Shown: one piece after another, positions 2,066 through 63,249 of the stretch
Layout: each line of letters opens with the position of its first letter
How positions within the stretch are numbered: the first letter of the stretch is position 1
Origin: Pseudomonadota bacterium
GTDB taxonomy: Bacteria > Verrucomicrobiota > Verrucomicrobiia > Limisphaerales > SXTU01
Direction of reading: 5' to 3'
Assembly: GCA_009924135.1 (NCBI GenBank)
Contig: RFSE01000004.1
Span: 12,893-76,892, forward strand
Length of the DNA: 64,000 bases
The notes under the pieces: model-generated
The model's database searches: none
The model's input: only the letters and a program-made list of their open reading frames with translations
Told to the model about the DNA's origin: nothing
Program-made: the position numbers and the translations under genes

Positions 2066-3223
2066 ATGAAAGTGCTCTTCGTGTCGAATCTGTTTCCCGA
2101 TGCCACCGCGCCGGGACATGGACAGATCAACGCCACGGTGCTGCATCAGCTCGCCCGTCACTGCGAAATCCGCGTCATCGCTCCGCGTCCGCAACTGCCC
2201 TTCAAAAGCTGGCGTGCCCGCGCGCCGCGCGAGGAGGACCAGCTTTTCAAGCCGCAGTACGTGCGCACCTTCTATGTGCCGAAGCTGGGCGGCCCCTGGA
2301 ACCATCGCCTCATGGCGCGGGCGCTCCACGAGCCTATCCGACGAATGCGGGCCGAGTTCCCGTTCGACGTCGTCCTCGGGGCCTGGGTCTATCCGGATGC
2401 CTGCGCGTTAGATCTGTTGGATGCCGACTTGCAGGCCCCCGTCGTTGCCATCGCCCAGGGCACCGACGTCCACAGCTACCTGCACATGCCGTTGCGCCGG
2501 CACATCATCGTGCAGGCCCTCAGCCGCGCCGCCGCCACGATCACCCGCAGCCGGGATCTGGCCAACCGCCTCCACCAGGCGGGCGTGCCCTTCATGAAGC
2601 TGCGGCCGATTTACAACGGCGTGGACACCGCCATGTTCCGGCCCGGCGATGCCGCTGCCCTGCGCCGCGAATTGGACCTGCCCACCGACCGCCAGGTCAT
2701 CCTCTACGTCGGCAACTTCCTGCCGGTGAAGAATCCGCTCCTGCTCATCAGCGCCCATGCCCGCCTGTGCCCCGCCATCGGCAAGCCGTACGAACTGGTC
2801 ATGATCGGCACCGGCCCGCTGGCGGCCAAGGCCCGGAAGCTCGCCGACGCCGGCGGCTTCGGCGCAAATGTGCGGCTCGTGGGCCGCAAGTCACCGGCGG
2901 AAGTCGCCCGCTACATGCAGGCGGCCGACGTACTGTGCGTCCCCAGCAAGCAGGAAGGCGTGCCCAACGTCATCCTCGAAGGCTTCGCCTGCGGCCTGCG
3001 CACCGTCGCCACCCGGGTTGGCGGCATTCCCGAAGTACTCGACAAGGACTGCCTCGGCCAATTGGTGCCCAGCGCTGATGTGGACGCCCTCAGCCAAGCC
3101 CTCGGACAGACCTTGCGGGCCACTCCCGACCGCGACGCCATCCTCCGCCACGCGGCCAATTTCTCGTGGGCGCGCACCACGGAGCGTTACCTGTCCGTGC
3201 TGGAAGAAGTCCGGGCGCGGTGA
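2066..3223 (+). CDS. Glycosyltransferase family 4 (GT-B, GT1/GT4 type)
   Basis: 385 aa. The N-terminus MKVLFVSNLFPD and the C-terminal EGVPNVILEGFACGLRTVATRVGGIPEVL (E-x7-E-like donor-binding region) are typical of GT4. Confidence 0.85.
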   Translation: MKVLFVSNLFPDATAPGHGQINATVLHQLARHCEIRVIAPRPQLPFKSWRARAPREEDQLFKPQYVRTFYVPKLGGPWNHRLMARALHEPIRRMRAEFPFDVVLGAWVYPDACALDLLDADLQAPVVAIAQGTDVHSYLHMPLRRHIIVQALSRAAATITRSRDLANRLHQAGVPFMKLRPIYNGVDTAMFRPGDAAALRRELDLPTDRQVILYVGNFLPVKNPLLLISAHARLCPAIGKPYELVMIGTGPLAAKARKLADAGGFGANVRLVGRKSPAEVARYMQAADVLCVPSKQEGVPNVILEGFACGLRTVATRVGGIPEVLDKDCLGQLVPSADVDALSQALGQTLRATPDRDAILRHAANFSWARTTERYLSVLEEVRAR

Positions 3224-3926: not shown

Positions 3927-4874
3927 ATGTATTCACTCTCCACCTGCTGGAACTCCCATCGACACACGGACGGTCGCGCCATGCTGCAGGAGATCGCGGC
4001 GCTCGGCTTCGAGTACGCGGAACTGAGCCACGGCATCCGCGTGAGCCTGGTGCCGGGCATCCTCGCGGCGGTGGACGCCGGCGAAATCCGCATCTCCACG
4101 CTGCACAACTTCTGCCCGCTGCCCATGGGCGTGACGCACGCCGCGCCGAACATCTACCAGTTCACCAGTGAGGATGCCCGCGAACGGGAGAACGCGCTGA
4201 AGCAGACTTTTAAGACGCTGGATTTCGCCGTGCGCGTGAAGGCCCGGCTGGTGGTGCTGCACATGGGCAGCCTCACGGCGATGAAGCCCAAGGCCTTCCT
4301 CGGCCTGTTCGGGCCGGAGGATTTCACGGACACGATGCTGGACTTGATCGCGGCCAAGCAGAACGAGACGCCAAAATTCTACCAGCTCCTGGCCGGCGTG
4401 TTCGAACAGCACGATTTGCACAAGCCGGCCCCGATGGAGCGCACTGCCGCAGCCTTGAAGGAGATCGCGACCCGCGCGGCGGAACTCGGTTTGCAGCTCG
4501 GGGTCGAGAACCGCGAGGCACTGGAAGAGGTCCCGCTGGACAACGACATGGCCGAGTTCCTGGCTGGTTTCCCCTCGGCCACGGTGCGTTACTGGCACGA
4601 CACCGGGCACGCGCAGATCAAGGAACACCTGGGCTTCCTGCAACACACGACGCACCTCGGCGCGCTCGCGGACCGGTTGGGCGGCCTGCACATTCACGAC
4701 GTGGAGTTTCCCGGCAAGGATCACCGTGAGCCGGGCACGGGCACGGTTGATTTCGCGGCGTTGAAACCGTTTGTGAAGCCCGAGCACATCAAGGTCTTCG
4801 AGTTCAGCCCCGGCATGACCGTGGAGGCATTGAAACGCGGGGTGGCCCATGTGAAGCGGGTCTGGGGACAATGA
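3927..4874 (+). CDS. Sugar phosphate isomerase/epimerase (xylose-isomerase-like TIM barrel)
   Basis: 315 aa. LGFEYAELSHG, VVLHMG, LGVENRE and WHDTGHAQ motifs are typical of the AP-endonuclease-2/TIM-barrel family. Confidence 0.75.
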   Translation: MYSLSTCWNSHRHTDGRAMLQEIAALGFEYAELSHGIRVSLVPGILAAVDAGEIRISTLHNFCPLPMGVTHAAPNIYQFTSEDARERENALKQTFKTLDFAVRVKARLVVLHMGSLTAMKPKAFLGLFGPEDFTDTMLDLIAAKQNETPKFYQLLAGVFEQHDLHKPAPMERTAAALKEIATRAAELGLQLGVENREALEEVPLDNDMAEFLAGFPSATVRYWHDTGHAQIKEHLGFLQHTTHLGALADRLGGLHIHDVEFPGKDHREPGTGTVDFAALKPFVKPEHIKVFEFSPGMTVEALKRGVAHVKRVWGQ

Positions 4875-5974
4875 AGTCCTCGAAATCATGGCTCAAGCAG
4901 CTCGTACAACTCGCCGTGTGCGGCCTGTTGCTGGCGTGGATTTTCCAAACCATTTTCTGGAAGGAAGGGAAGGAAGCCTGGGAACGCGGGAAGCGCACCC
5001 CAGCGTGGGATAACTTGACCCGGCTTGAACGGCTGCAGGTTTCCTGGACCCACGGACCAAGGGAAGTCTGGCAGGACATGTCCCGCGTACGACCCGAGGC
5101 GTTCGCCCTTTCGCTGGGACTGATGGGCGCGACCATCTTCCTGGGCATTGTGCGCTGGCGGCAGGTCTTGCGGGTACATGGATTGGACTTGTCCCTCGCG
5201 CGGGCGACGGAGATTTCGCTGGTGGCGCACTTCTTCAACTCCTTCCTCCTCGGTGCGGCCGGCGGTGACCTGATGAAGGCTTATTACGCGGCCCGGGAAA
5301 CTCACCATAAGAAAGCCGAAGCGGTGGGCACGGTGTTTGTTGATCGCATCGTGGGATTGTTCGCCCTGCTCTGCTTCACCATGGTGGCCATGGTGGTGAA
5401 CCTCCCGTTGCTGGCGGCGGACCGCCTGTTTCAAAAGCTCGCAGTCGTGATCACGGCGATGTTCGGTGGCTGCGCCGTGGTGCTGGTGCTCGCCTTCCGG
5501 GGCGGCGTTTCCAGGGGGCTGCCACAAGCGCGCGAGTGGTTGCGCAAATTGCCGAAAGGAGATTTTCTCGAACGGCTGCGCGAGTCCCTGAAACCCTTTG
5601 GACGTGACCCGGCGTTCCTGCTGAAGAGCTTTGCCGTGTCGCTGCTGCTCTGTGGCGTCTGCGTGCTGCACGTGCAATCACTCGTCTGGGGGCTGGGGCT
5701 GGAGATTTCGTTGCGCCACCTCTGCGCCGTGGTGCCGATGATCACCTGCATCGTGGTCCTGCCGCTGACGCCGAGTGGACTGGGCGTACGGGAGAACCTG
5801 TTTGTGCTGATGCTGGCCGTGCCATTGATCGGAGTGGAACACACCTCGGCCCTGTCACTCTCGCTGCTGTGTACGGCTGGCAGCCTGTTCTGGAGCGTGG
5901 TCGGCGGCGTGGTGTACGCCAGTCTCAAACACCAGCATCACCTGGCCGAGCTGGCTCAGGAAGAAAAGGAATGA
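4871..5974 (+). CDS. Flippase-like / lysylphosphatidylglycerol-synthase-TM-region family membrane protein (UPF0104)
   Basis: 367 aa, polytopic. GAAGGDLMKAYYAARETHHKKAEAVGTVFVDRIVGL is the family signature. There is a 4-nt ATGA overlap with the upstream gene. Confidence 0.7.
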   Translation: MKSSKSWLKQLVQLAVCGLLLAWIFQTIFWKEGKEAWERGKRTPAWDNLTRLERLQVSWTHGPREVWQDMSRVRPEAFALSLGLMGATIFLGIVRWRQVLRVHGLDLSLARATEISLVAHFFNSFLLGAAGGDLMKAYYAARETHHKKAEAVGTVFVDRIVGLFALLCFTMVAMVVNLPLLAADRLFQKLAVVITAMFGGCAVVLVLAFRGGVSRGLPQAREWLRKLPKGDFLERLRESLKPFGRDPAFLLKSFAVSLLLCGVCVLHVQSLVWGLGLEISLRHLCAVVPMITCIVVLPLTPSGLGVRENLFVLMLAVPLIGVEHTSALSLSLLCTAGSLFWSVVGGVVYASLKHQHHLAELAQEEKE

Positions 5975-13162: not shown

Positions 13163-13762
13163 CTACTTCTTCGACGGGTTCGAGACGTTCTTCGACGGGT
13201 TCGAGACGTTCTTCGACGGGTTCGAGACGTTCTTCGACGGGTTCGAGACGTTGAGATTATTCAGATTGCCCGCCACCGGATTACCGAAATCACCTGCGGT
13301 GAGTGTAGGCACAAACGGCAGCAACACAGTGATAATGTTACTCTTCTGAGCAGAGGCACCCTCACTACCGCCCGCCGCAATCGCCTTTACGAGTTCAACC
13401 TTCATGCCCGGGTTGCCCGACGCAACACCATTAGCAGCCGCCAAGCAGATGGCAACGGACGAGTTGGGCAGCAGGGCGCAAGCCTGACGCACGGCTTCCT
13501 GCAGCTCTTCGCGGCCAACGCCCGGCTTGGAGCCGAGGTAGGCCACGATCTTCTTGGCCATGTCTTCCTTGTCAGCGGCAGGTGTGTTTTTCAGAATGTC
13601 CGCCACCTTCTGGCCGATTTTCTTGCCCTTGACGCCATCCAGCTCATTCTTGTGAGTGGTGGTCAGGTTAGCCTCGGCTGAAGCGTCGTAGGTGAAGCAC
13701 ACACCCGTGAGCAGGAGGGTTCCGAGGGCGAGGGACTTGATGATGTTGGCGGCAGTTTTCAT
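13163..13762 (-). CDS. Secreted protein of unknown function with C-terminal (NVSNPSK)x4 repeat
   Basis: ATG at 13762 gives the signal peptide MKTAANIIKSLALGTLLLTGVCF...A/EA. The ORF-track start at 13786 is TTG. The C-terminus is built from 4 perfect 21-bp repeats. Confidence 0.7.
   Translation of the reverse strand: MKTAANIIKSLALGTLLLTGVCFTYDASAEANLTTTHKNELDGVKGKKIGQKVADILKNTPAADKEDMAKKIVAYLGSKPGVGREELQEAVRQACALLPNSSVAICLAAANGVASGNPGMKVELVKAIAAGGSEGASAQKSNIITVLLPFVPTLTAGDFGNPVAGNLNNLNVSNPSKNVSNPSKNVSNPSKNVSNPSKK
13169..13252 (-). repeat. Perfect 21-bp tandem repeat x4 (coding VNTR)
   Basis: CTTCGACGGGTTCGAGACGTT is repeated four times without a mismatch at 13169-13189, 13190-13210, 13211-13231 and 13232-13252. 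Confidence 0.95.
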
Positions 13763-17324: not shown

Positions 17325-17420
17325 CTTGTAATCTTAATCTTTCTCTTAATCTTTCTCCCTTCGGACGGAGCGGAAGTGCGGGATTAAGATTACGAGCAGG
17401 AGGAAGAGTAAGATTAGCAG
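17325..17420. repeat. Hairpin element with tandem-repeat arms (CTTAATCTTTCT x2 / GATTAAGATTAC...)
   Basis: Left arm is CTTGTAATCTTAATCTTTCTCTTAATCTTTCTCCC. After a 20-nt loop, the right arm is GGGATTAAGATTACGAGCAGGAGGAAGAGTAAGATTAGCAG. Located in a divergent intergenic region. Confidence 0.6.
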
Positions 17421-25802: not shown

Positions 25803-26127
25803 CCTAAGCCGGAACCATTCTTTAGCCACAGATGGAACACAGATGAAACACAGACAGGGACGCTCCTCTGTTGGGTTCTACGCGGGATGGACCGTTCACC
25901 CAAAGAGGCATCCAGTTGGGAAGCCTAGCAGCCTGTTCAAAAACTGTAGCGGCGCTCTGTGAGCGCCGAACGAAACGAGAGAACAGGCCCAAACTCGGCG
26001 GTCATAGACCGCCGCTACAGCGGGCAGGGCGTTTTTTTTAACGGACTGTTAGCTGGTGACCAAAGCTGCGGCCATCTGTGTTCAATCTGTGTTTCATCTG
26101 TGGCTCAAATGCATCGGTCCGGCTAAG
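25803..26127. mobile_element. Composite/nested MITE-like element (family A termini around a second palindromic element)
   Basis: Termini are TAAGCCGGAACCATTCTTTAGCCACAGATGGAACACAGATGAAACACAGA and the reverse complement of CCATCTGTGTTCAATCTGTGTTTCATCTGTGGCTCAAATGCATCGGTCCGGCTAAG. Flanked by direct TAAG. The inner inverted repeat is CTGTAGCGGCG...CGCCGCTACAG. Confidence 0.7.
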
Positions 26128-41341: not shown

Positions 41342-42712
41342 TCACGATGAAGCGTGCGATTTCAGCAGATAGGCACGGAAGGCTTCATAGTCCGCACCCA
41401 TGTGGTCGTAATCCTCCGGCTGATGCAAACCGGTGTTCATGGCAGCGGGGACGTCCGGAGCCCAGCCGACGACCTTCTCCACTTCCTCGGGGAACTTGGC
41501 GGGGTTCGCCGTCTCGATAATGACGGCGGGCGTGGAGCCGATGGACTCGGCGGCGCACCAGTCGAGGAAGCCCTGCCACGCCACGACCCCATGCGGCTCG
41601 AGCAGGATTTGATACTTGTTCCAAAAGTCCCGCAGCGACGTGCGCGTACGCTCATCGGTGATGGAGGTGGAGAAGACATCGCGGCGCATCGCCACGAGGT
41701 CGGGCGGCCGGTGAATCTTGCCGGTCTCGTCCATCTGGCCACCGTAAACGGCCACGAGGCGGGCGAGGTTGCTGGGATGGCCCACATTCATCGCGTTGGA
41801 GACGGAGTTGCGCGAGGGGGAGATCTTTTCGTAAACGCCGCTGTGGAGGTAGCGCGGGAAGGAGTCGTTGTCGTTGACCGAGGCGATGATTTTCCGCACG
41901 GGCAGGCCCATCTCGCGCGCGACCACGGCGCCCATCATGTCGCCGAAGTTGCCGCTGGGAATGGAGAAGACGATGGGTTCACCGGGCCGTGCGAGGCGCG
42001 AGGCGGCGTAGAAGTAGTAAACGCTCTGCGGCAGGAGCCGGCCGATGTTGATGGAGTTGGCGGAGGACAGGTGGATGTGCGCCAGCGCAGGGTCGGTGAA
42101 CGCACGTTTGACCATCGCCTGGCAGTCGTCGAACTTGCCGTCCACGGCCACGGTGCGGACGTTCTCCTTGAGCGTGGTCATGAGCTTGCGCTGGCTCTCG
42201 CTGACCTCGGCGAGCGGGAAGAGGACGATGACCCGCACCCCGGGAATCTCATGGAAGGCATGTGCGACGGCCGCGCCGGTATCACCGCTGGTGGCCGTGA
42301 GGATGGTGACCTCGCGATGTTCCTCCTTCAGGAACCGGCCAAACATCTGCGCCATCATCTGGGCCGCGAAATCCTTGAAAGACGCCGTGGGGCCCTGATC
42401 CAGGCGCATCAGGTAGATGCCGCGCTGAATGACCTCCAGCGGGACGCCAAAGTCATACGCCTTGCGGCACATCTCGGCGAGGGCGTCGTCGGGAATGATG
42501 CCCTCGGTGAATTTGCGGAGCACGCGGAAGGCGACTTCGCGATACGGCAGCTCGGCGAACTCGGCGATTTCCAACGACGTGAGCTGCGGGAAGCGCTCGG
42601 GCAGATACAGGCCGCGATCCGGGGCCTGCCCGGCGAGGAAGGCTTCCCGGAGGTTGACGGCGGGGGACTGGCCGTTGGTGCTGCGAAACAAAAGCGCGCT
42701 CATCTTACTCAA
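41342..42712 (-). CDS. thrC: Threonine synthase
   Basis: 456 aa. Contains the PLP-lysine motif TASFKDFAAQ and the N-terminus ...GLYLPERFP, typical of the long ThrC form. Confidence 0.9.
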   Translation of the reverse strand: MSKMSALLFRSTNGQSPAVNLREAFLAGQAPDRGLYLPERFPQLTSLEIAEFAELPYREVAFRVLRKFTEGIIPDDALAEMCRKAYDFGVPLEVIQRGIYLMRLDQGPTASFKDFAAQMMAQMFGRFLKEEHREVTILTATSGDTGAAVAHAFHEIPGVRVIVLFPLAEVSESQRKLMTTLKENVRTVAVDGKFDDCQAMVKRAFTDPALAHIHLSSANSINIGRLLPQSVYYFYAASRLARPGEPIVFSIPSGNFGDMMGAVVAREMGLPVRKIIASVNDNDSFPRYLHSGVYEKISPSRNSVSNAMNVGHPSNLARLVAVYGGQMDETGKIHRPPDLVAMRRDVFSTSITDERTRTSLRDFWNKYQILLEPHGVVAWQGFLDWCAAESIGSTPAVIIETANPAKFPEEVEKVVGWAPDVPAAMNTGLHQPEDYDHMGADYEAFRAYLLKSHASS

Positions 42713-44072
42713 AGCTTTCTACCCGGATCATGACGGGGGCTGATTTTACAACCGGCAGTTTGGCAATCGCCGACAGCGCGCGTTTCATCGCGGCGTTCGG
42801 TGCGTCGTGGATCATCAGGATGACCGGGACGGTTTCCCCGGCATGGCCCTCCGGCTGGATGATGGAAGAGATGCCGATCTTCGCCTTCGCCAGAATGTCC
42901 GCGATCTTCGCGAACACTCCGGGCCGGTCCTCGACGGTCAGCCGCACGTAATAGCGGGAGACCACGTCATCCATGGGCAGGACCGCGCCGTCGCGCTCGT
43001 GCGGGATGAACGGCGGGATGCGGTTTTTGGTGCCGCACTTGAGGTCCAGCGCGGCATCTGCGAGATCGCTCAAGACCGCGCTGGCCGTGGCGTCCTGGCC
43101 CGCGCCGCGCCCGTAGTAAAGCGTGTCGCCCACGACATCGCCGCGCACATAGACGGCGTTGAAGACGCCGTTGACGTTGGCGAGGACGTGGGAGTTGGGG
43201 ACGAGTGCGGGATAGACGCTGACTTGAATTGCGAATTGCGAATTGCGAATTGCGAATTTGGTACCGCGCGCCGGCCGCCCATTCCCCATTCGCAACTCGC
43301 CATTCGACATTGTCTTTACGCAACCCAGCAAACGGATCGTATAGCCCAGCTTCGCGGCAAACTCGATGTCCTGCTTCGTGATGTTGCGGATGCCCTCGGT
43401 GTAAATCTGCTTCGGGTTCACCCAGAAACCGTGCGCGAGGCTGGCGAGAATGCCGGTCTTGTGCGCCGCGTCGTGGCCGTCGATGTCCAAGTCCGGCGGC
43501 GTTTCCGCGTAGCCCAGACGCTGGGCGTCGGCGAGCACGGCGTCGAAGTCCGCGCCCTCATCCTTCATGCGCGAGAGGATGTAGTTGCATGTGCCGTTGA
43601 CGATGCCGAAGAGCCGGGTGATGCGGTTGCCGATCAAGCCTTCGCGCAGCACCTTGATGATCGGGATGCCGCCCGCCACGCTCGCCTCGTAATACAGGTT
43701 CGTCCCGTGCTGCTGGGCTGCGGCGAACAGTTCTTCGCCGTGCGCGGAGAGCAAGGCCTTGTTCGCGGTGACGACGGGCTTGCCGAGTTTGAGCGCCGCG
43801 AGCACGACCTGCCGGGCGGTGGTGGTGCCACCCATCAACTCGACGACTAGGTTCACCTCGGGGTCCGCAACGACGCTCTGCCAGTCCGTGGTGAGCAGCC
43901 CGGCCGGGATGTTCACCGCGCGGGCTTTCTTCAAATCGCGCACGGCGACGCGCGCGATGGTCAACGACACGCCAAGACGCGACGCCATCAAAGCGCCGTT
44001 TCGCCGGATGGCTTCGTAAACGCCGCCACCGACGGTGCCGCCACCAATCATGCCCAGATTCACCTGCCGCAT
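42705..44072 (-). CDS. hom: Homoserine dehydrogenase (with an about 25-30-aa repeat-derived insertion) plus ACT domain
   Basis: GMIGGGTVGGGV, NAVYVRGDVVGDTLYYGRGAGQDATASAVLSDL, and a C-terminal ACT domain. There is an 8-nt overlap with thrC. Confidence 0.9.
   Translation of the reverse strand: MRQVNLGMIGGGTVGGGVYEAIRRNGALMASRLGVSLTIARVAVRDLKKARAVNIPAGLLTTDWQSVVADPEVNLVVELMGGTTTARQVVLAALKLGKPVVTANKALLSAHGEELFAAAQQHGTNLYYEASVAGGIPIIKVLREGLIGNRITRLFGIVNGTCNYILSRMKDEGADFDAVLADAQRLGYAETPPDLDIDGHDAAHKTGILASLAHGFWVNPKQIYTEGIRNITKQDIEFAAKLGYTIRLLGCVKTMSNGELRMGNGRPARGTKFAIRNSQFAIQVSVYPALVPNSHVLANVNGVFNAVYVRGDVVGDTLYYGRGAGQDATASAVLSDLADAALDLKCGTKNRIPPFIPHERDGAVLPMDDVVSRYYVRLTVEDRPGVFAKIADILAKAKIGISSIIQPEGHAGETVPVILMIHDAPNAAMKRALSAIAKLPVVKSAPVMIRVESFE
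43224..43312. repeat. Intragenic tandem-heptamer hairpin element (GAATTGC x4 / spacer / degenerate complement)
   Basis: Four perfect GAATTGC units at 43226-43253, a 20-nt GC spacer, then ATTCCCC ATTCGCA ACTCGCC ATTCGAC at 43281-43308. Confidence 0.85.
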
Positions 44073-44179
44073 AGGGCGCGGAGACTATGCGATGGCGGCG
44101 GCCAGACAATTCCTTTTTGACCTTTGGGATTCCTCATTTCGCTGCTGACGAGGCCGCCGCCCTGGGTTTCACTGCCCGC

Positions 44180-46296: not shown

Positions 46297-46492
46297 CCGG
46301 ACCGATTCATTAGCCACGGATGAAACACGGACGGAACACGGATGGGAACGCGATGAACACGCGTTTTGTCGCAGTTGCCTGCCTGGACCAAATGGTGCGG
46401 GTCAAAAAAGCGGGGCAAGGCGGTCCTTGCACAGTTGGTTCTGTGTTTAATCCGTGTTCCATCCGTGGCTCAACTGCATCGTCCCGGCTTAG
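46292..46492 (+). mobile_element. MITE, family A (about 200 bp), between arsC and arsD
   Basis: TIRs are GCCGGACCGATTCATTAGCCACGGATGAAACACGGA and the reverse complement of TCCGTGTTCCATCCGTGGCTCAACTGCATCGTCCCGGC. Flanked by direct TTA(G). The core shares CACGCGTTTTGTCGCAGTTGCCTG and GGTGCGGGTCAA with the inverted copy at 63053-63249. It has no coding capacity. Confidence 0.8.
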
Positions 46493-51698: not shown

Positions 51699-51894
51699 GG
51701 GCGCATCTTGACACTGCCCCCGGAGCGCGGCTGTGTCCCGCTCGGCGCGGGATCAGCCGCAGCAACGACAGAAGGCTGAGCGGGGGCGTAACGCCGCACC
51801 GCCTCCTGCCAGGCGCAGCCGCTGCGGCTGGTCTCCGCGACACAGCCGCGCTCCGGAAGTGTTCGTTCCTCGGGGGCAGTGGCAAGATGCGCCC
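51699..51894. mobile_element. MITE, family B (196 bp) with about 65-bp TIRs and a perfect 9-bp target-site duplication
   Basis: The left end is GGGCGCATCTTGACACTGCCCCCGGAGCGCGGCTGTGTC... The right end, reverse-complemented, is GGGCGCATCTTGCCACTGCCCCCGAGG..CCGGAGCGCGGCTGTGTC... Direct TGATTCAAT occurs at 51690-51698 and 51895-51903. Confidence 0.85.
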
Positions 51895-51898
51895 TGAT

Positions 51899-54800
51899 TC
51901 AATCCACATACACAAACTCGTTCACATTCAGCAGCGCGCGGCAGAACTCCGGCAGGGCGGTCGGGCCGTGCTTGGCGAGGAACGCGCCCGCCTGCTCACG
52001 CTCGGCAGCACTCGGGGCACGGCCGAGGGTGAGCCACACGGCGCGTTCGATTTGTTTGGCGGCATCGTTGCCCGCTTCGGTCGTGACCCGTGCGGCAAGG
52101 GCTTTGGCCGCGCGCAGGGAAAACTCACTGTTCAACAGGTTCAGTGCCTGCGGGGCGACGGTCGTCACGTCGCGCCGGGCGCAGGAGAACGAGGTGTCCG
52201 GCAGGTCGAAGGCTTGCAGGAACGGCAACGGCACGCAGCGCTTCTGGATGAGGTAGAGCGAACGCACGTCGCACTCCTCCTCCTTGTCCGCGTACCAGCC
52301 CTGGCGACGGCCGCTGTCCTTGCCTTCAAGCCCCTCCAGCACGCCAGGCTGGGCCCGCAAAATCTCCTCGGGCAATGGCGGCCACAACGGCTTGCCCCCG
52401 GCGTAGGGTCGCAGCTTGCCGGAAACGGCCAGCAGGGTGTCGCGCATCGTTTCCGCATCGAGACGGCGCGGGTTTTGCCGCCAGAGGAGGTGGTTGTCGG
52501 GGTCGAGGGTCGAGGGTCGAGGGTCGAGAGCGCGTGCGCTCGACGCCTTCCGGCCTTCGGCTCTCGACTCTCGACTCTCGGCCACACTCACCTGCCGATA
52601 CGCCGCGGTCGTGACCATCAGCCGGTGCATCGCCTTGATGGACCAGCCGCGCGCGACGAACTCCGTGGCCAGCCAGTCCAGCAGTTCGGGGTGCGTGGGC
52701 TTGGCCCCGGCGTAGCCGAGGTCGTTCGGATTCGCGAAGAGCGCCGCACCGAAATGGTGCTGCCAGAGGCGGTTCACGAGCACGCGGGCAGTGAACGGAT
52801 TCTGCGGCGTGGCGATCCATTCAGCCAGCGCGAGCCGGCGTCCGGTCGTGCCGGAAGGCGGGGCTTTCACCTTGGCGGGATTCGGGTCCAGCACGGAGAT
52901 GAAACCAGGCTGAACTTCGTCGCGCGGTTCGGTGAAGTCGCCTTGGTAGAAAAGCTTCGTCGGCTCCACGCCGCCCTCGCTCACGGCCATCGCGACGGTG
53001 TACGCGCGCTTCTGCTTCTTGAGTTCGTCCACCTTGGCAGTGGCTTCGGAGTGACGCTTCTTGCCGGCTTCGTCGAGGGCCGCGAGTGCGTCCTTGTCGC
53101 TGACCTTCAGCTTTTCCAACTGCGGTTCGAGTTTCTTCTTCGTGGCCTCGTCGCGCTTGGCCTCGTCGGTCTTGAGCAGCTCCTGAACGTCAGCGGGCAG
53201 CTTCGCGATGCGCTCGGCGCGCAGCTTCTGGCGACCGGGGGCGAGCGCCTCCTCCACGGCCTTTTGCGCGTCGATGACCCGCTTGTCCACGCCGGCATTG
53301 TGCGCCTTGATGGCTTCCTGTTCGGGCGCGAGATCAATGGGCTGGTCGTCGCGTGATTTCACGGCGGCGAAGAAGGCGCGGAAGCGGAAATGATCCGCCT
53401 GCGAGAGCGGGTCGTACTTGTGATCGTGGCAGTTGCAGCAGGAGAAGGTGAGGCCGAGGAACGCGCTGCCCGTCGTGTTGACGAGATCGGCCATCAGATC
53501 GTTCCGCAGCTTGCGATCCTCCTGGAAGATGCTCGCCGTGCTGTCGTACGTGCCGAGCCGCAGGAAACCGGTGGCGATGAGCGCGTCCGCCTCGGCCGGC
53601 GATTTCGGCGGACCACTCAACGACTCGTCCCCCGCCAACTGCTCGCGGATGAAACGGTCGTAGGGTTTGTCTTCGTTCAAGGAACGCACGACGTAATCGC
53701 GATAGCGCCACATCTCCGGGCGGAACTCATCGCGTTCGTGGCCGTTGGTGTCAGCGTAGCGCACCACATCGAGCCAGTGACGCGCCCAGCGTTCGCCGTA
53801 GCGCGGGGATGCCAGCAGCTTGTCCACGAGCTTTTCGATGGCCGGTTGCCGATTGGCGACGGAGGAACACTCACGCTCGAAGGCCGCGATCTCCTCGGGC
53901 GTCGGCGGCAGGCCGATGAGGTCGAAGTAAAGGCGGCGGATGAGCGTGCGCGGGTCGGCTTCGGGAGAATAAGTGAGGTTCTTCTCGGCGAGCTTCGCCA
54001 GGAGGAAGCGATCGATGGGGTTGGAAGTGTTCAGTTTCCAGTTTTCAGTTTTCAGTTGGGAAACGTTGCCGCCGCCCGCCTTTTTGGTTTCACCGCTGCC
54101 TTTGGCCGACTGAACACTGGACACTGAATACTGAACACTTTCCCCGGGCACACGCGGACGCACGGGTTGTTTGAGCGACCACAGGTCCAGGCGTTCGCCG
54201 CGCCAGATTTTGCGGATGGGATTTTCCGGGTCGGTCCAGGCGTCGCCGAGCGGTTTGGCGGGGGCGGCGATCTTCAGGGCAAGCTGGCCGTTGCCGGGGG
54301 CGTAGGCATCGAGACTTACCACATCCGGGCCTAGAATGACGCTGTCGAAGAGGGCTTCCTCGCCCTTGTCGCAAGTGGGTGCCAGGCCGGTGAGCGTGCA
54401 ATTACCAAGGTCCTTCCACAGATCCACCGTCACGACCGTCCAGGCCGTCGGCGCGGTGTCGCTCACGGAGATGGCGGCCCAGCCGGTGGTGTTCGGCCCC
54501 GCGACGTAACGACCCTTGGGGTCTTTCGCGTCCGGCCAGGCACCGCTGCGGGCCAGCTCGAACATCACGCTGCCACCGCCGCGCTTCTTCCACGCGAACC
54601 GCATGAAGCGCACCTGTCCCGCCGCCGGCTGCTCGCGCACTTCGAAGTTCCAGCCCGGCACCTTCGGCGCTTCGCGTTGAAGCGGCGTCATGCCCAACGC
54701 GGCCTTGCCGCGAAACACGTCATCGGTCACCAGCCGCGCCCGACCATTGCCGCTGGTCAGCACACTGAGAAATTCCACCTCATCTTCGAAGAGCACCGCC

Positions 54801-55162
54801 ACCGGCTCCGGCCACGGTGCGCCGGCCTGTACCCACGCTTCGAGCGCGGCGATGTCCTTGGCGGGCAGTTTTTCCTTCGGCGGCATCGCGAGGTCTTTCG
54901 TCGCGTGGCGGACGGCCTGGAGCAGGAGGCTCTTCTTCACGTCACCGGGGACAAACGCCGGGCCTTGCTCACCGCCCTTGAGCGCAGCGGCCTTGGAATC
55001 CAGCCGCAGACCACCCTTCTGCTTGTCCGGGCCGTGACAGGAAACGCATTTTTGATCGAGGAGCGGCTTGATCTGGTCGCGGAAATTCCCCACCTCGGCG
55101 CGTGCGGCACGGCACAGCAGAAGTGCGCCGAGGCAGAGCAAAAAAGTTCGCAGCCGGATCAT
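51899..55162 (-). CDS. PSCyt1 / DUF1549 (PSCyt2) / DUF1553 (PSD1) multidomain protein
   Basis: 1087 aa. Contains the heme-like motif CVSCHGPDKQKGGLRLD, NPIDRFLLAKL...LIRRLYFDLIGLPPTPEEI (DUF1549), and FLGLTFSCCNCHDHKYDP (DUF1553). Confidence 0.9.
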   Translation of the reverse strand: MIRLRTFLLCLGALLLCRAARAEVGNFRDQIKPLLDQKCVSCHGPDKQKGGLRLDSKAAALKGGEQGPAFVPGDVKKSLLLQAVRHATKDLAMPPKEKLPAKDIAALEAWVQAGAPWPEPVAVLFEDEVEFLSVLTSGNGRARLVTDDVFRGKAALGMTPLQREAPKVPGWNFEVREQPAAGQVRFMRFAWKKRGGGSVMFELARSGAWPDAKDPKGRYVAGPNTTGWAAISVSDTAPTAWTVVTVDLWKDLGNCTLTGLAPTCDKGEEALFDSVILGPDVVSLDAYAPGNGQLALKIAAPAKPLGDAWTDPENPIRKIWRGERLDLWSLKQPVRPRVPGESVQYSVSSVQSAKGSGETKKAGGGNVSQLKTENWKLNTSNPIDRFLLAKLAEKNLTYSPEADPRTLIRRLYFDLIGLPPTPEEIAAFERECSSVANRQPAIEKLVDKLLASPRYGERWARHWLDVVRYADTNGHERDEFRPEMWRYRDYVVRSLNEDKPYDRFIREQLAGDESLSGPPKSPAEADALIATGFLRLGTYDSTASIFQEDRKLRNDLMADLVNTTGSAFLGLTFSCCNCHDHKYDPLSQADHFRFRAFFAAVKSRDDQPIDLAPEQEAIKAHNAGVDKRVIDAQKAVEEALAPGRQKLRAERIAKLPADVQELLKTDEAKRDEATKKKLEPQLEKLKVSDKDALAALDEAGKKRHSEATAKVDELKKQKRAYTVAMAVSEGGVEPTKLFYQGDFTEPRDEVQPGFISVLDPNPAKVKAPPSGTTGRRLALAEWIATPQNPFTARVLVNRLWQHHFGAALFANPNDLGYAGAKPTHPELLDWLATEFVARGWSIKAMHRLMVTTAAYRQVSVAESRESRAEGRKASSARALDPRPSTLDPDNHLLWRQNPRRLDAETMRDTLLAVSGKLRPYAGGKPLWPPLPEEILRAQPGVLEGLEGKDSGRRQGWYADKEEECDVRSLYLIQKRCVPLPFLQAFDLPDTSFSCARRDVTTVAPQALNLLNSEFSLRAAKALAARVTTEAGNDAAKQIERAVWLTLGRAPSAAEREQAGAFLAKHGPTALPEFCRALLNVNEFVYVD
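52496..52581. repeat. Intragenic tandem-heptamer hairpin element (GTCGAGG units / CTCTCGA units)
   Basis: GTCGGGG GTCGAGG x3 GTCGAGA (52496-52530), a 30-nt spacer, then CTCTCGA CTCTCGA CTCTCGG (52561-52581). Confidence 0.8.
54028..54138. repeat. Intragenic tandem-heptamer hairpin element (TTCAGTT units / ACTGAAC units)
   Basis: TTCAGTT TCCAGTT TTCAGTT TTCAGTT (54030-54057), a 51-nt spacer, then ACTGAAC ACTGGAC ACTGAAT ACTGAAC (54109-54136). Confidence 0.8.
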
Positions 55163-55259: not shown

Positions 55260-55619
55260 ATGAAAACCCTCGCCGTCTGTCTGGCTGTCTTGGTTTGTCT
55301 CCCGGGCTGCAAGCGTCGTACGCCCGCCCCGGTCGCCGTGCCCGCTCCCGCGCCGACGCCACCGACGAACGCCCCGGCGAGCATCCCGCCGCCGCCCCAG
55401 CCGGGCACCGCCAAGATCATCACCGGGGATCAAAACTTGCCCAAGCTCAACGCGGCGCTCCAAGCCTATCTGGCCAAGTACAAAAAAGCTCCTGCCCGTC
55501 TGGATGAACTGGCCAAGGAAGGCTTGATCCCGTTCATCCCCATGGCTCCGCCGGGCCAGCGCTACGAACTCGACGCGGCCCGTGGTGAAGTAAAGCTGGT
55601 CAATCCCATGGTCAAATAA
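55260..55619 (+). CDS. Small lipoprotein of unknown function
   Basis: ATG at 55260 gives MKTLAVCLAVLVCLPGC (lipobox), a Pro/Ala-rich linker, then ...LIPFIPMAPPGQRYELDAARGEVKLV. Confidence 0.6.
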   Translation: MKTLAVCLAVLVCLPGCKRRTPAPVAVPAPAPTPPTNAPASIPPPPQPGTAKIITGDQNLPKLNAALQAYLAKYKKAPARLDELAKEGLIPFIPMAPPGQRYELDAARGEVKLVNPMVK

Positions 55620-56265
55620 TACCGAGTACTGGAATACTCTGGCCGAATCCCCGATTTGAACCAACGAACGTTTTCTCCCTCACCATAAACCGAAGAGGAT
55701 CAGAAAGATGGGGAAGGACCTGAGTTGAAATTTTTCTGACCCCATTTTTCTGACCCATGCAGCTGTCATACCAACTGCGGGAATAGTTTGGTAAAATGGG
55801 GGCGAGTTGTGGCTTGCGTAGCCGTTCTCCCCACCCCGGCCCTCTCCCGCTGGGAGAGGGAGAATCTTCGGCTGTCTTCAATCAAGCGCTGCCGCTTGCT
55901 AACCAGGCCGGGCTTGGTGGCCCCCTCTCCCAGCGGGAGAGGGCCGGGGTGAGGGAGGAAACGTTCGGTGGTTCAAATCGGGGATTCGGCCAGAGTATTC
56001 CAGTAATTGGTATTAAACAGTCCGAAATCGAGCAGCGGCGAAAGTCCCTGAACTGGACCGCGGCCCTCCGGGCCGCAGCGGCAACTTGCGCAAGTGGGGC
56101 GAAAGGAAACCTGCGACCGTTCATTAGCACGGTAACCGCTGCGGGTGGGACGCCTGCGGTCCGGTTCATGGGAATGGGTGGCGTGCGTGGGCGAGGGTGG
56201 CCGCACCCCTCATCCGGCCTCCGGCCACCTTCTCCCCTCGCTCCGCGAAGGGAGAAGGCTCCCAA
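55618..56265. repeat. Repeat nest: 67-bp inverted repeat pair plus three CCCTCTCCC..GGGAGAGGG-type hairpins and a 13-14-bp tandem duplication
   Basis: 55618-55684 is the near-exact reverse complement of 55948-56014. Hairpins are CCCTCTCCCGCTGGGAGAGGG (55840-55860), CCCTCTCCCAGCGGGAGAGGG (55923-55943) and CCTTCTCCCCTCGCTCCGCGAAGGGAGAAGG (56228-56258). ATTTTTCTGACCC occurs twice at 55730-55756. Confidence 0.8.
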
Positions 56266-63052: not shown

Positions 63053-63249
63053 TTAGCCGGACCGATTCAGTTGAGCCACGGATGGAACACGGATTAAACA
63101 CGGAGCCAACGGTGCCAGGACCGCTTCGCACCGCTGCTTGACCCGCACCGTTTGGTGCCGACAGGCAACTGCGACAAAACGCGTGCTCACCCATCCCCAT
63201 CCGTGTTCCATCCGTGTTTCTTCCGTGGTTAAAGAATCAGTCCGCTTAG
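63053..63249 (-). mobile_element. MITE, family A, inverted relative to the 46292-46492 copy
   Basis: TIRs are GCCGGACCGATTCAGTTGAGCCACGGATGGAACACGGA and the reverse complement of ...CCGTGTTTCTTCCGTGGTTAAAGAATCAGTCCGC. Flanked by direct TTAG. The core is the reverse complement of the arsC-arsD copy's core. Confidence 0.8.

Follow-up and report, generated by a model that had tools for sequence, protein, structure and literature searches.

We analysed a stretch of 64,000 nucleotides (hereafter the window) from contig RFSE01000004.1 of assembly GCA_009924135.1, whose lineage in GTDB lies within the Limisphaerales of the Verrucomicrobiota. The minus strand carries a gene (51899–55162) for a 1087-residue PSCyt1-PSCyt2-PSD1 protein, in which Pfam recognizes a PSCyt1 domain (residues 39–97), a PSCyt2 (DUF1549) domain (residues 382–602) and a PSD1 (DUF1553) domain (residues 775–1061; 287 residues matched to a 243-position profile). 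Our subject is a palindrome of tandem heptamers within this gene (54025–54140, 116 bases), which has the general form (NNTCAGT)n-loop-(ACTGANN)n and encodes approximately residues 341–380, at the N-terminal edge of PSCyt2. The translation of the host open reading frame (ORF) runs ...GESVQYSVSSVQSAKGSGETKKAGGGNVSQLKTENWKLNTS and continues directly into NPIDRFLLAKL. An alignment with 19 homologues reveals three sites rich in insertions and deletions in the host protein: site 1 before PSCyt2, site 2 inside PSD1 and site 3 inside PSCyt2. W denotes the window's own locus, and L followed by a number denotes the other loci and contigs that were compared.

A direct check of the sequence confirmed the two arrays, their positions and the spacer that a first-pass annotation of the window had described. 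On the plus strand, the left array (54030–54057) reads TTCAGTT TCCAGTT TTCAGTT TTCAGTT and the right array (54109–54136) reads ACTGAAC ACTGGAC ACTGAAT ACTGAAC, with 51 nt between them. A repeat search extends the arrays to arms of 35 nt (54025–54059 and 54106–54140), which lie 46 nt apart and are complementary at 29 of 35 positions (83%), and Tandem Repeats Finder (TRF) assigns a period of 7 to both arms, with 4.6 and 4.4 copies. Since the gene is on the minus strand, the first arm (plus strand AAGTG TTCAGTT TCCAGTT TTCAGTT TTCAGTT GG) becomes the 3´ arm of the coding strand, where it reads ACTGAAA ACTGAAA ACTGGAA ACTGAAC ACTT and encodes LKTENWKLNT. The second arm (plus strand CCG ACTGAAC ACTGGAC ACTGAAT ACTGAAC ACTT) is the coding-strand 5´ arm, which reads AGTGTTC AGTATTC AGTGTCC AGTGTTC AGTC and encodes SVQYSVSSVQS. 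The 46-nt loop between the extended arms (54060–54105, minus strand) is G+C-rich and encodes SAKGSGETKKAGGGNVSQ. The G+C content of the arms is 40–47%, compared with 62–70% for the gene. The locus is the only one in the 64-kb window at which TCAGT occurs four times at 7-nt spacing (at most three mismatches), and the pattern appeared in none of 100 dinucleotide shuffles.

The hairpin is predicted to form on either strand, with folding energies of -53.4 and -55.1 kcal/mol (z = -4.3 and -4.4), and none of 200 shuffled sequences was equally stable. The translation and the fold thus bear out an in-frame tandem-heptamer hairpin, and its placement in an inter-domain linker is upheld by the Pfam boundaries and the alignment, which show the linker to be variable and to adjoin the N-terminal edge of DUF1549/PSCyt2. 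An AlphaFold model built from a 19-sequence alignment is of low quality as a whole (mean pLDDT 47); residues 341–379 are modelled as coil, with pLDDT under 50, which weakly suggests that the encoded segment is a disordered linker. The array is internal to the ORF, with no start codon downstream of it. A scan of 53700–54500 found no promoter-like or terminator-like site at the element, the arms being A+T-rich and not a G+C-rich stem followed by a U-tract, and Rfam 15 families gave no match in the window at the gathering threshold. The ends of the element, GGGGAAAGTG...CACTTCCAACCCC, bear neither the GTAG nor the CGTC tag of repetitive extragenic palindromic (REP) sequences and their paired hairpin forms (REPINs), and no direct repeats are present at the junctions of the W copy.

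The ACTGGAA variant unit of the 3´ arm is a case of stop-codon avoidance. A run of ACTGANN units places TGA in each reading frame by turns, and therefore an in-frame array of at least three units must lose one TGA; in the arm at 54025–54059, ACTGGAA is the sole unit with a TGR triplet in frame. Across the coding-embedded arrays of W, L010, L013, L162, L161, L002, L284 and L285, all seven ACT-core units with an in-frame TGR triplet read TGG, whereas all 19 out-of-frame units keep TGA, a split that has an exact probability of 1/657,800. This TGA-to-TGG rule explains the recurring peptide T-E-N-W. When the encoded peptide was compared with a large protein database, no entry had three 5-residue words in common with it. 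A copy in an unrelated UvrA gene (L109) contains an 8-nt unit that resets the phase instead.

The first-pass annotation had read the variant units of the two arms as a compensatory change that maintains pairing, a reading that we do not retain. The variants are out of register in the W hairpin: at full length, left unit 2 stands opposite right unit 3, and neither is paired in the predicted fold. The complementary CC gives a G-C pair only if the register slips by one unit, as in the fold of L010 but not of W, and the A-to-G change still pairs as G-U in RNA. Across five orthologues the arms show no compensatory pairs (RNAalifold covariation term, +4.68), and avoidance of the stop codon is the simpler account of TGG. 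The matching variant units are at most a relic and provide no evidence of selection for pairing.

The same protein is present on a 4-kb ENA metagenome scaffold, and its closest homologues (80–87% identical) come from metagenome-assembled genomes of Verrucomicrobiota, Limisphaerales and Pedosphaera. Between the same anchors (GTGCC... and ...CCCATCGAC), site 1 exists in these orthologues in two alternative states, hairpin or plain array. W, L010/L284, L162, L013 and L161 carry the hairpin allele. A plain (GCAATCG)2–5 array, translated IGNRQSAI, occupies the site in L002–L006, L009 and L285, with a concerted variant (GCCATCG)n in L005, and (ATTCGCA)-type or degenerate arrays are found in L008, L011, L007 and L018. 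More distant homologues (57–62% identity) have short repeat-free sequences at all three sites, with 8–10 residues at site 1. The hairpin allele exceeds the array allele of L006 by 93 nt. Site 1 shows no target-site duplication, and therefore the hairpin replaces the array and does not interrupt the sequence. The hairpin does not follow the gene tree in its distribution: it is present in W and absent from the sister L004, present in L162 and absent from L009, and present in the deep-branching L161. Sliding identity between W and its orthologues showed no recent introgression around the hairpin.

Within the hairpin alleles, the two arms and the loop have evolved differently. The coding-strand 5´ arm, AGTGTTCAGTATTCAGTGTCCAGTGTTCAGTC, is identical at 33 of 33 nt in W, L010/L284 and L162, whereas a comparison of W, L010 and L162 finds 7 of 34 columns variable in the 3´ arm (mostly at unit positions 6–7) and approximately half of the loop columns vary among the orthologues that share the hairpin. 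The 4-fold degenerate sites of the gene are only 64–71% identical among the W, L010 and L162 lineages, so that the identity of the arm is far from the neutral expectation (0.65^33, approximately 7e-7). Changes in length are confined to 21 nt: exactly 21 nt (three units) of one arm are missing from L013 and 21 nt of the opposite arm from L161, and the orthologues yielded no frameshifted allele. The hairpin is very stable in L010 and L162 (z = -5.5 and -7.8) and decayed in L013 and L161 (z = -2.1 and -2.8). The residue that follows the tryptophan codon varies among K, T, S and P.

The other two sites of the gene also hold heptamer repeats. Site 2, which directly precedes a conserved DPxNxLLWRQ motif, contains a second in-frame hairpin (52496–52583, minus strand) of the form (GGGTCGA)x4.9 / (TCGACTC)x3.4, which encodes SRESRAEGRKASSARALDPRPSTLDP. 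Its plus strand, antisense to the gene, folds much better than the coding strand (-76.4 versus -53.2 kcal/mol) because an identical C-to-T change in all right-arm units gives G-U pairs. On the coding strand, (CCTCGAC)n continues into the native codons CTC GAC CCC GAC, and the array looks like an expansion of them. Site 3 holds a degenerate (GCAATCG)-type array (53834–53860, minus strand) that encodes VANRQPAIE, where orthologues have either perfect IGNRQSAIE arrays or an unrelated hairpin. The DUF1553 gene thus contains two hairpins (54025–54140 and 52496–52583) and one degenerate array (53834–53860). Three hairpins had been assigned to it in the first-pass annotation; two do belong there, and the third, with the peptide FAIRNSQF, lies in a homoserine dehydrogenase gene (42708–44084). 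That hairpin (43223–43312, minus strand) consists of (GAATTGC)x4.7 and a degenerate inverted partner, encodes ...FAIRNSQFAIQ and falls inside the Homoserine_dh domain assigned by Pfam. A similar hairpin occupies the same site in L162; L004 has a single re-expanded arm, in L018 an arm has been taken over by (GTCGAGG)n, and L002 and L013 retain degenerate remnants.

Inverted repeats also flank the DUF1553 gene. Just upstream, at 55617–56015, lies a composite inverted repeat of approximately 400 bp with outer arms of 68 nt (94% complementary) and a nested pair of 32 nt (55829–55860 and 55923–55954, 97% complementary). Directly downstream of the stop codon, lies a 24-nt inverted repeat (51699–51722 and 51871–51894, 96% complementary) with its arms 148 nt apart.

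At site 2, almost every orthologue has a different palindrome. An ACTGA-type hairpin occupies this site in L002, L284 and L285, and in L002 the remnants of an older arm are found next to it, as a replacement would leave them. In L007, L010 and L161 the site holds, in frame, a REPIN-like palindrome of the GTAG/GTGG...CTAC type with arms GGAGCCGACGTGAGGAGGCTC and a variable spacer of approximately 23 nt (L007 2715–2785; L010 12560–12632; L161 2792–2862). This palindrome is dispersed, recurring elsewhere in L007 (9670–9740) and in L013 (3783–3870), where its spacer contains a heptamer array, (AATGCGG)n. L010 and L284 are approximately 99.7% identical over the gene except for a tract of approximately 170–210 nt at site 2 (L010 12556–12700 versus L284 12556–12730). 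L010 has the REPIN-like palindrome in this tract, L284 has the ACTGA-type hairpin, and the tract includes approximately 30 nt of flanking codons with several substitutions. The difference looks like a short imported tract (recombination) or a dimorphism within the population, and not like transposition. An imported tract would offer a simple explanation for the patchy distribution of alleles, and we extend it to site 1 by inference.

Period-7 repeats are enriched throughout the close relatives of the window. Counting arrays of at least 2.8 copies, TRF found 43 arrays of period 7 in 271 kb (the window and close-relative loci), compared with 16 of period 6, nine of period 8 and eight of period 9, and a stricter detector returned 24 arrays of period 7 against 0–7 for each other period from 5 to 12. 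Only six period-7 arrays occur in 321 kb of planctomycete loci and none in 88 kb of more distant Verrucomicrobia, so the enrichment is limited to a close Limisphaerales-like clade. More than 12 different heptamer units share the same architecture in approximately 350 kb of this clade, both within and between genes. A conserved AGT/ACT trinucleotide was considered as the feature that defines all units and was discarded, given that periodic runs of TCG, ATC, AAT and CAA are equally frequent and that the GCAATCG and GAATTGC families lack it.

Outside this clade, ACTGA-type hairpins are also common in many other G+C-rich bacteria and in phages. We scanned metagenome contigs and viral contigs with the exact pattern ACTGAANACTGAANACTG, which gave at least 120 stretches in the metagenome contigs; the figures in this paragraph and the next refer to the matches listed. 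In at least 32 non-redundant metagenome cases, an inverted array lies as a partner no more than 100 nt away. The polarity 5´-(NNNCAGT)n - loop - (ACTGNNN)n-3´ holds in 35 of 35 metagenome detections and in 46 of 48 detections in viral contigs (two are reverse), which carry up to seven hairpins each. In the viral scan, the arms comprise 3–5 units (mode 4) with a core of ACTGA plus two variable bases, and the loops measure 4–96 nt. The variable bases are complementary to those of their own partner in 69% of cases, compared with 57% (sd 2%) for shuffled partners.

Of the 25 hairpins with callable neighbours in G+C-rich contigs, 21 lie between co-directional ORFs, and the intercistronic hairpins begin 0–9 nt after a stop codon and end approximately 1–25 nt before the next start. 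Only one hairpin in the metagenome contigs is deep in a long ORF: the UvrA gene of L109 (501–3713, minus strand), an unrelated metagenome contig, carries the in-frame ACTGA-type hairpin CSVFSVQSGESAPNAKLKTDSLNTEH, and further upstream it encodes SVQSSVISSQ and AIGNRQSQI segments of the same repeat families, here in a further essential gene. Phage contigs with 4–7 ACTGA-type hairpins each (L192 1864–4954; L272 19–12626; L206; L190; L261; G+C content 57–69%) have them in the gaps between co-directional structural genes; in two of the phage contigs, hairpins follow the head-tail adaptor, tail terminator, major head and major tail genes. A target-site duplication of 3–6 nt was found in none of 32 copies (0.2–1.9 expected by chance). 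The copies share no conserved outer tips or loops, the loops being unrelated even within one contig, and for five multi-copy phage or metagenome loci Rfam (E ≤0.1) returned only chance sub-threshold hits to eukaryotic miRNA hairpins. The element in the window is a genuine member of a widespread and poorly understood class of paired heptamers that is normally intergenic, a membership assigned by architecture. The first-pass annotation had likewise placed it in a repeated class, and both the further copies and the repeat structure kept at the site in relatives agree with this. As a separate observation, L111 (42% G+C) contains an extreme member of the motif class at 212–669, in which 44 CAGT-core heptamers (CTTCAGT, CCTCAGT or CTCCAGT) are followed by a second array of ACTG-core units.

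We favour, with a probability of roughly 0.55, the interpretation that the element is a REP-like palindrome of heptamer repeats that the gene tolerates as a passenger in frame. The copy would occupy a permissive linker before PSCyt2 as an allele alternative to the plain (GCAATCG)n array, and would lengthen the linker by approximately 31 residues. Purifying selection on the host protein would purge frameshifts, leaving changes of arm length in 21-nt steps only, and would purge stop codons, so that an in-frame TGA unit becomes ACTGG; the arms would otherwise evolve through 7-nt slippage. Whole hairpin alleles would pass between related lineages by short-tract homologous recombination, which would produce the patchy distribution. 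Three parts of this interpretation are inferred: that the gene derives no function from the copy, that the arms are built through slippage, and the route by which the class first arrives at a new site. The open frame of the elements had earlier been attributed to either selection or a targeted mechanism. Purifying selection is sufficient, because the insertions and deletions in the arms are of 21 nt and the copies outside the loci of the clade are, among the matches listed, almost all intergenic; a targeted mechanism is not needed.

Several observations weigh against a tolerated passenger. The 33-nt arm is frozen amid divergence of the loop, the upstream flank and the other arm alike, and this invariance of one arm looks like constraint at the nucleotide level, which is unexpected for a pure passenger. 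The strict polarity of the class and its tight placement 0–9 nt after stop codons suggest a function or a directional mechanism. No clean empty site was seen at site 1, the alternative allele being another repeat, and the 64-kb window holds only one ACTGA-type copy. No mobilising enzyme for the element turned up, although no search for a REP-associated tyrosine transposase (RAYT) gene or an autonomous element was made; the ORFs scanned near the element are of the DUF1501, sulfatase, 3-keto-disaccharide hydrolase and homoserine dehydrogenase families.

Because the invariant arm and the polarity and placement of the class fit a pure passenger poorly, we keep as the main rival a functional cis-acting element inside the ORF, a tentative explanation to which we give a minor share of the probability. 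Such an element would be the target of a nucleic-acid-binding factor or, as an RNA stem-loop, would control mRNA stability, processing, ribosome passage or translational coupling, and the intragenic copy would be kept for modulating the expression of the multidomain protein. This explanation would account for an arm that is invariant in nucleotides across lineages with approximately 35% divergence at neutral sites, for the great stability that the hairpin retains in W, L010 and L162 (z from -4.3 to -7.8) and for conserved ACTGA cores with variable NN in one strict polarity. It also suits the intergenic copies, with their narrow distances to the preceding stop and the following start between co-directional genes, and the phage copies after major head, major tail, adaptor and terminator genes, and it recalls the translational role that MacGregor proposed for TAACTGA repeats upstream of start codons (PMC4679880). 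However, the arms show no compensatory changes, the hairpin has decayed in L013 and L161, and most orthologues lack it and have a non-hairpin array. Nor does the element coincide with a start codon, a promoter-like or terminator-like site or an Rfam family.

A broader form of this idea, which we regard as speculative and rather doubtful, is that ACTGA-heptad hairpins, 5´-(NNTCAGT)3–5 - loop - (ACTGANN)3–5-3´, represent an unrecognised cis-element across phyla and phages. A factor with 7-nt periodicity is conceivable, as is an enzyme that adds heptamer repeats to 3´ ends; the logic of the former is analogous to that of HutP, which binds UAG triplets spaced every 7 nt. If this were true, the intragenic copies with a frozen arm would be functional exaptations and not passengers.

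It is unlikely, and slightly more so, that the element was born purely locally, by 7-nt replication slippage together with fold-back or template switching between the arms of an existing palindrome and with no transfer between sites. More than 12 units that share one architecture would fit such a sequence-independent process, and the site-2 (CCTCGAC)n array does resemble an expansion of native codons. The takeover of a homoserine dehydrogenase arm by one variant unit in L018 and the concerted GCCATCG change in L005 point the same way, as does the idea of Mrazek, cited in PMC4692102 and in PMC4679880, that polymerase slippage favours heptamers. In contrast, the ACTGAAN unit has no similarity to the flanking native sequence, and its arms are of 40–47% G+C in a G+C-rich gene. 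Local birth also does not predict the same unit and polarity at other sites, in other genes and phyla and in phages, and the ACTGA hairpin beside older-arm remnants in L002 speaks against it.

A classical MITE (miniature inverted-repeat transposable element), that is, a deletion derivative of a DDE transposon inserted by cut-and-paste, whose terminal inverted repeats would be tandem transposase-binding heptamers, is highly improbable. The element does have terminal inverted repeats, as a MITE does, with the single polarity expected of transposon ends, and larger elements with heptamer or 11-mer termini exist in the clade (L285 2905–3215; window 25821–26108, 46312–46472 and 63071–63233). We reject this explanation because the test for a target-site duplication of 3–6 nt on 32 copies found none; moreover, the outer tips are not conserved, the loops are unrelated and the element replaces an array at site 1. 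Equally improbable is a role at the level of the protein or of phase variation, in which the linker peptide is selected or contingency repeats switch the gene by 7-nt slippage: the inter-domain position, the frame shift caused by one-unit slippage of a heptamer and the phase variation by simple repeats established in other bacteria (PMC4679880 and PMC4692102) would accord with it, but most orthologues have unrelated sequences in place of the peptide, the residues after TGG vary freely (K, T, S, P), and the arrays are short and imperfect and change length only by 21 nt, with no frameshifted allele found.

The larger elements of the window and the clade were described in their own right. The three copies of the MITE-like element in the window (25821–26108, 46312–46472 and 63071–63233) measure 160–290 bp. 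Their inverted ends, approximately 34–45 nt long, contain 11-mers in a tandem of three (CACGGATGAAA; in the first copy, both ends have CACAGATG). The first two copies are not crossed by any ORF, and only short stop-free stretches (at most 105 codons) cross the third. In L285, a cytochrome c biogenesis cluster holds two intergenic elements: one of 310 bp (2905–3215) that has inverted ends of heptamers (AACGTTC / CGTTGRR) and a palindrome nested within it, and a hairpin in which approximately nine CAATGAC units face CATTGGN units (4861–4999). The window also contains a perfect 21-nt tandem repeat, TTCTTCGACGGGTTCGAGACG x4.1 (13167–13252, 100% identical), beside an A+T-rich stretch, and an A+T-rich TAATCT-repeat hairpin, GTAATCTTAATC ... 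GATTAAGATTAC (17329–17395). A long ORF over the latter was dismissed as a real gene, its translation looking like an out-of-frame artefact. L002, L003, L011, L018, L024, L026 and L039 are verrucomicrobial or planctomycete DUF1553 loci in GTDB records titled Akkermansia muciniphila, Klebsiella pneumoniae or Candidatus Kuenenia stuttgartiensis; these titles are at odds with the closest relatives and appear to be placeholder mislabels.

Paired heptamer repeats have been seen in Xanthomonas, Geobacter, cyanobacteria and Beggiatoaceae, and the locus constitutes a natural experiment on their nature, although by itself it reveals no new mechanism. Three sites in one conserved gene carry palindromes that differ from orthologue to orthologue, which makes rates, allele turnover and constraints directly readable. 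The repeats also create and reshape protein linkers: tryptophan codons arise out of TGA, and peptides such as IGNRQSA and TENWKLN appear repeatedly in unrelated proteins. The strict polarity and intercistronic placement of the ACTGA type, which include phage structural operons, make a function or mechanism testable by simple binding or reporter experiments.

Among the closest known systems are the GGGAATC arrays of Xanthomonas campestris and X. axonopodis, which mostly comprise four units and form 70–75 convergent inverted pairs (Rehm et al., 2015; PMC4692102). According to that paper, the pairs are always convergent and capable of forming stem-loops, 89–93% of the repeat copies are intergenic and 7–11% overlap ORFs, and array length varies between related species while the single or paired type is kept. 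The W element likewise has a 7-nt unit, approximately four units per array, an inverted partner and one fixed orientation. It differs in that the Xanthomonas unit, found in Gammaproteobacteria, is G-rich and has been studied for G-quadruplexes, whereas the unit here is of the ACTGA type. The W copy lies inside an ORF of 1087 codons, although the class as a whole is intergenic. Residence in frame within linkers with avoidance of stop codons, as seen here, is not described for Xanthomonas in the available text of PMC4692102.

Another of the closest systems is the TAACTGA direct repeat of Beggiatoaceae, Cyanobacteria and Bacteroidetes, which mostly occurs immediately upstream of start codons (MacGregor, 2015; PMC4679880). 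In the forward orientation it places stops in all three frames, and copies internal to ORFs are rare and at tolerant positions; strains differ by 7-nt insertions and deletions, and no transfer mechanism is known (PMC4679880). TAACTGA is ACTGANN with TA as NN, so that the ACTGA core and head-to-tail repetition are shared with the W units. Its arrays are nearly all simple direct repeats, with one indirect repeat reported, and a hairpin architecture or polarity is not described (PMC4679880). A position upstream of a start codon holds for TAACTGA but not for the W copy, while the intergenic ACTGA-type hairpins end approximately 1–25 nt upstream of starts.

Dispersed tandem heptamers are also familiar as the short tandemly repeated repetitive sequences of Calothrix, Anabaena and Nostoc, which are mainly intergenic direct arrays used for fingerprinting, and two of their three classic units contain CAGT. 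Rickettsia palindromic elements, of approximately 100–150 bp, lie in frame in ORFs at permissive positions and add a peptide segment. The palindrome in the window shares this in-frame residence at a permissive site of a protein-coding gene. The Rickettsia families have a conserved sequence and belong to Alphaproteobacteria, whereas the W element has arms of tandem heptamers. Heptanucleotide repeats of Calothrix are the subject of a report cited in PMC4692102. In Geobacter metallireducens, multicopy elements of four heptanucleotides occur within and between genes (Aklujkar et al., 2009; PMC2700814). MTYCTGA is the consensus of one class, and units such as GGACCGG differ from those of W; the pairing architecture is partly described, and the elements were interpreted, without tests, as regulatory RNA or binding sites (PMC2700814).

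REP sequences and REPINs are short dispersed palindromes that owe their mobility to RAYT transposases (Bertels and Rainey, 2011, PMC3116915; Di Nocera et al., 2013, PMC3733652). The ACTGA-type element resembles them in its conserved arms, variable spacer and lack of a target-site duplication, and departs from them in that the W element has no GTAG/CGTC tag and its arms are tandem heptamers. The paired-heptamer architecture itself is thus not new. To our knowledge, there is no prior description of the ACTGA-type hairpin in Verrucomicrobiota, of the TGA-to-TGG rule, of allele turnover at an orthologous site, of the strict polarity or of the occurrence in phages, and these features, together with residence in frame within a linker, are what is new here.

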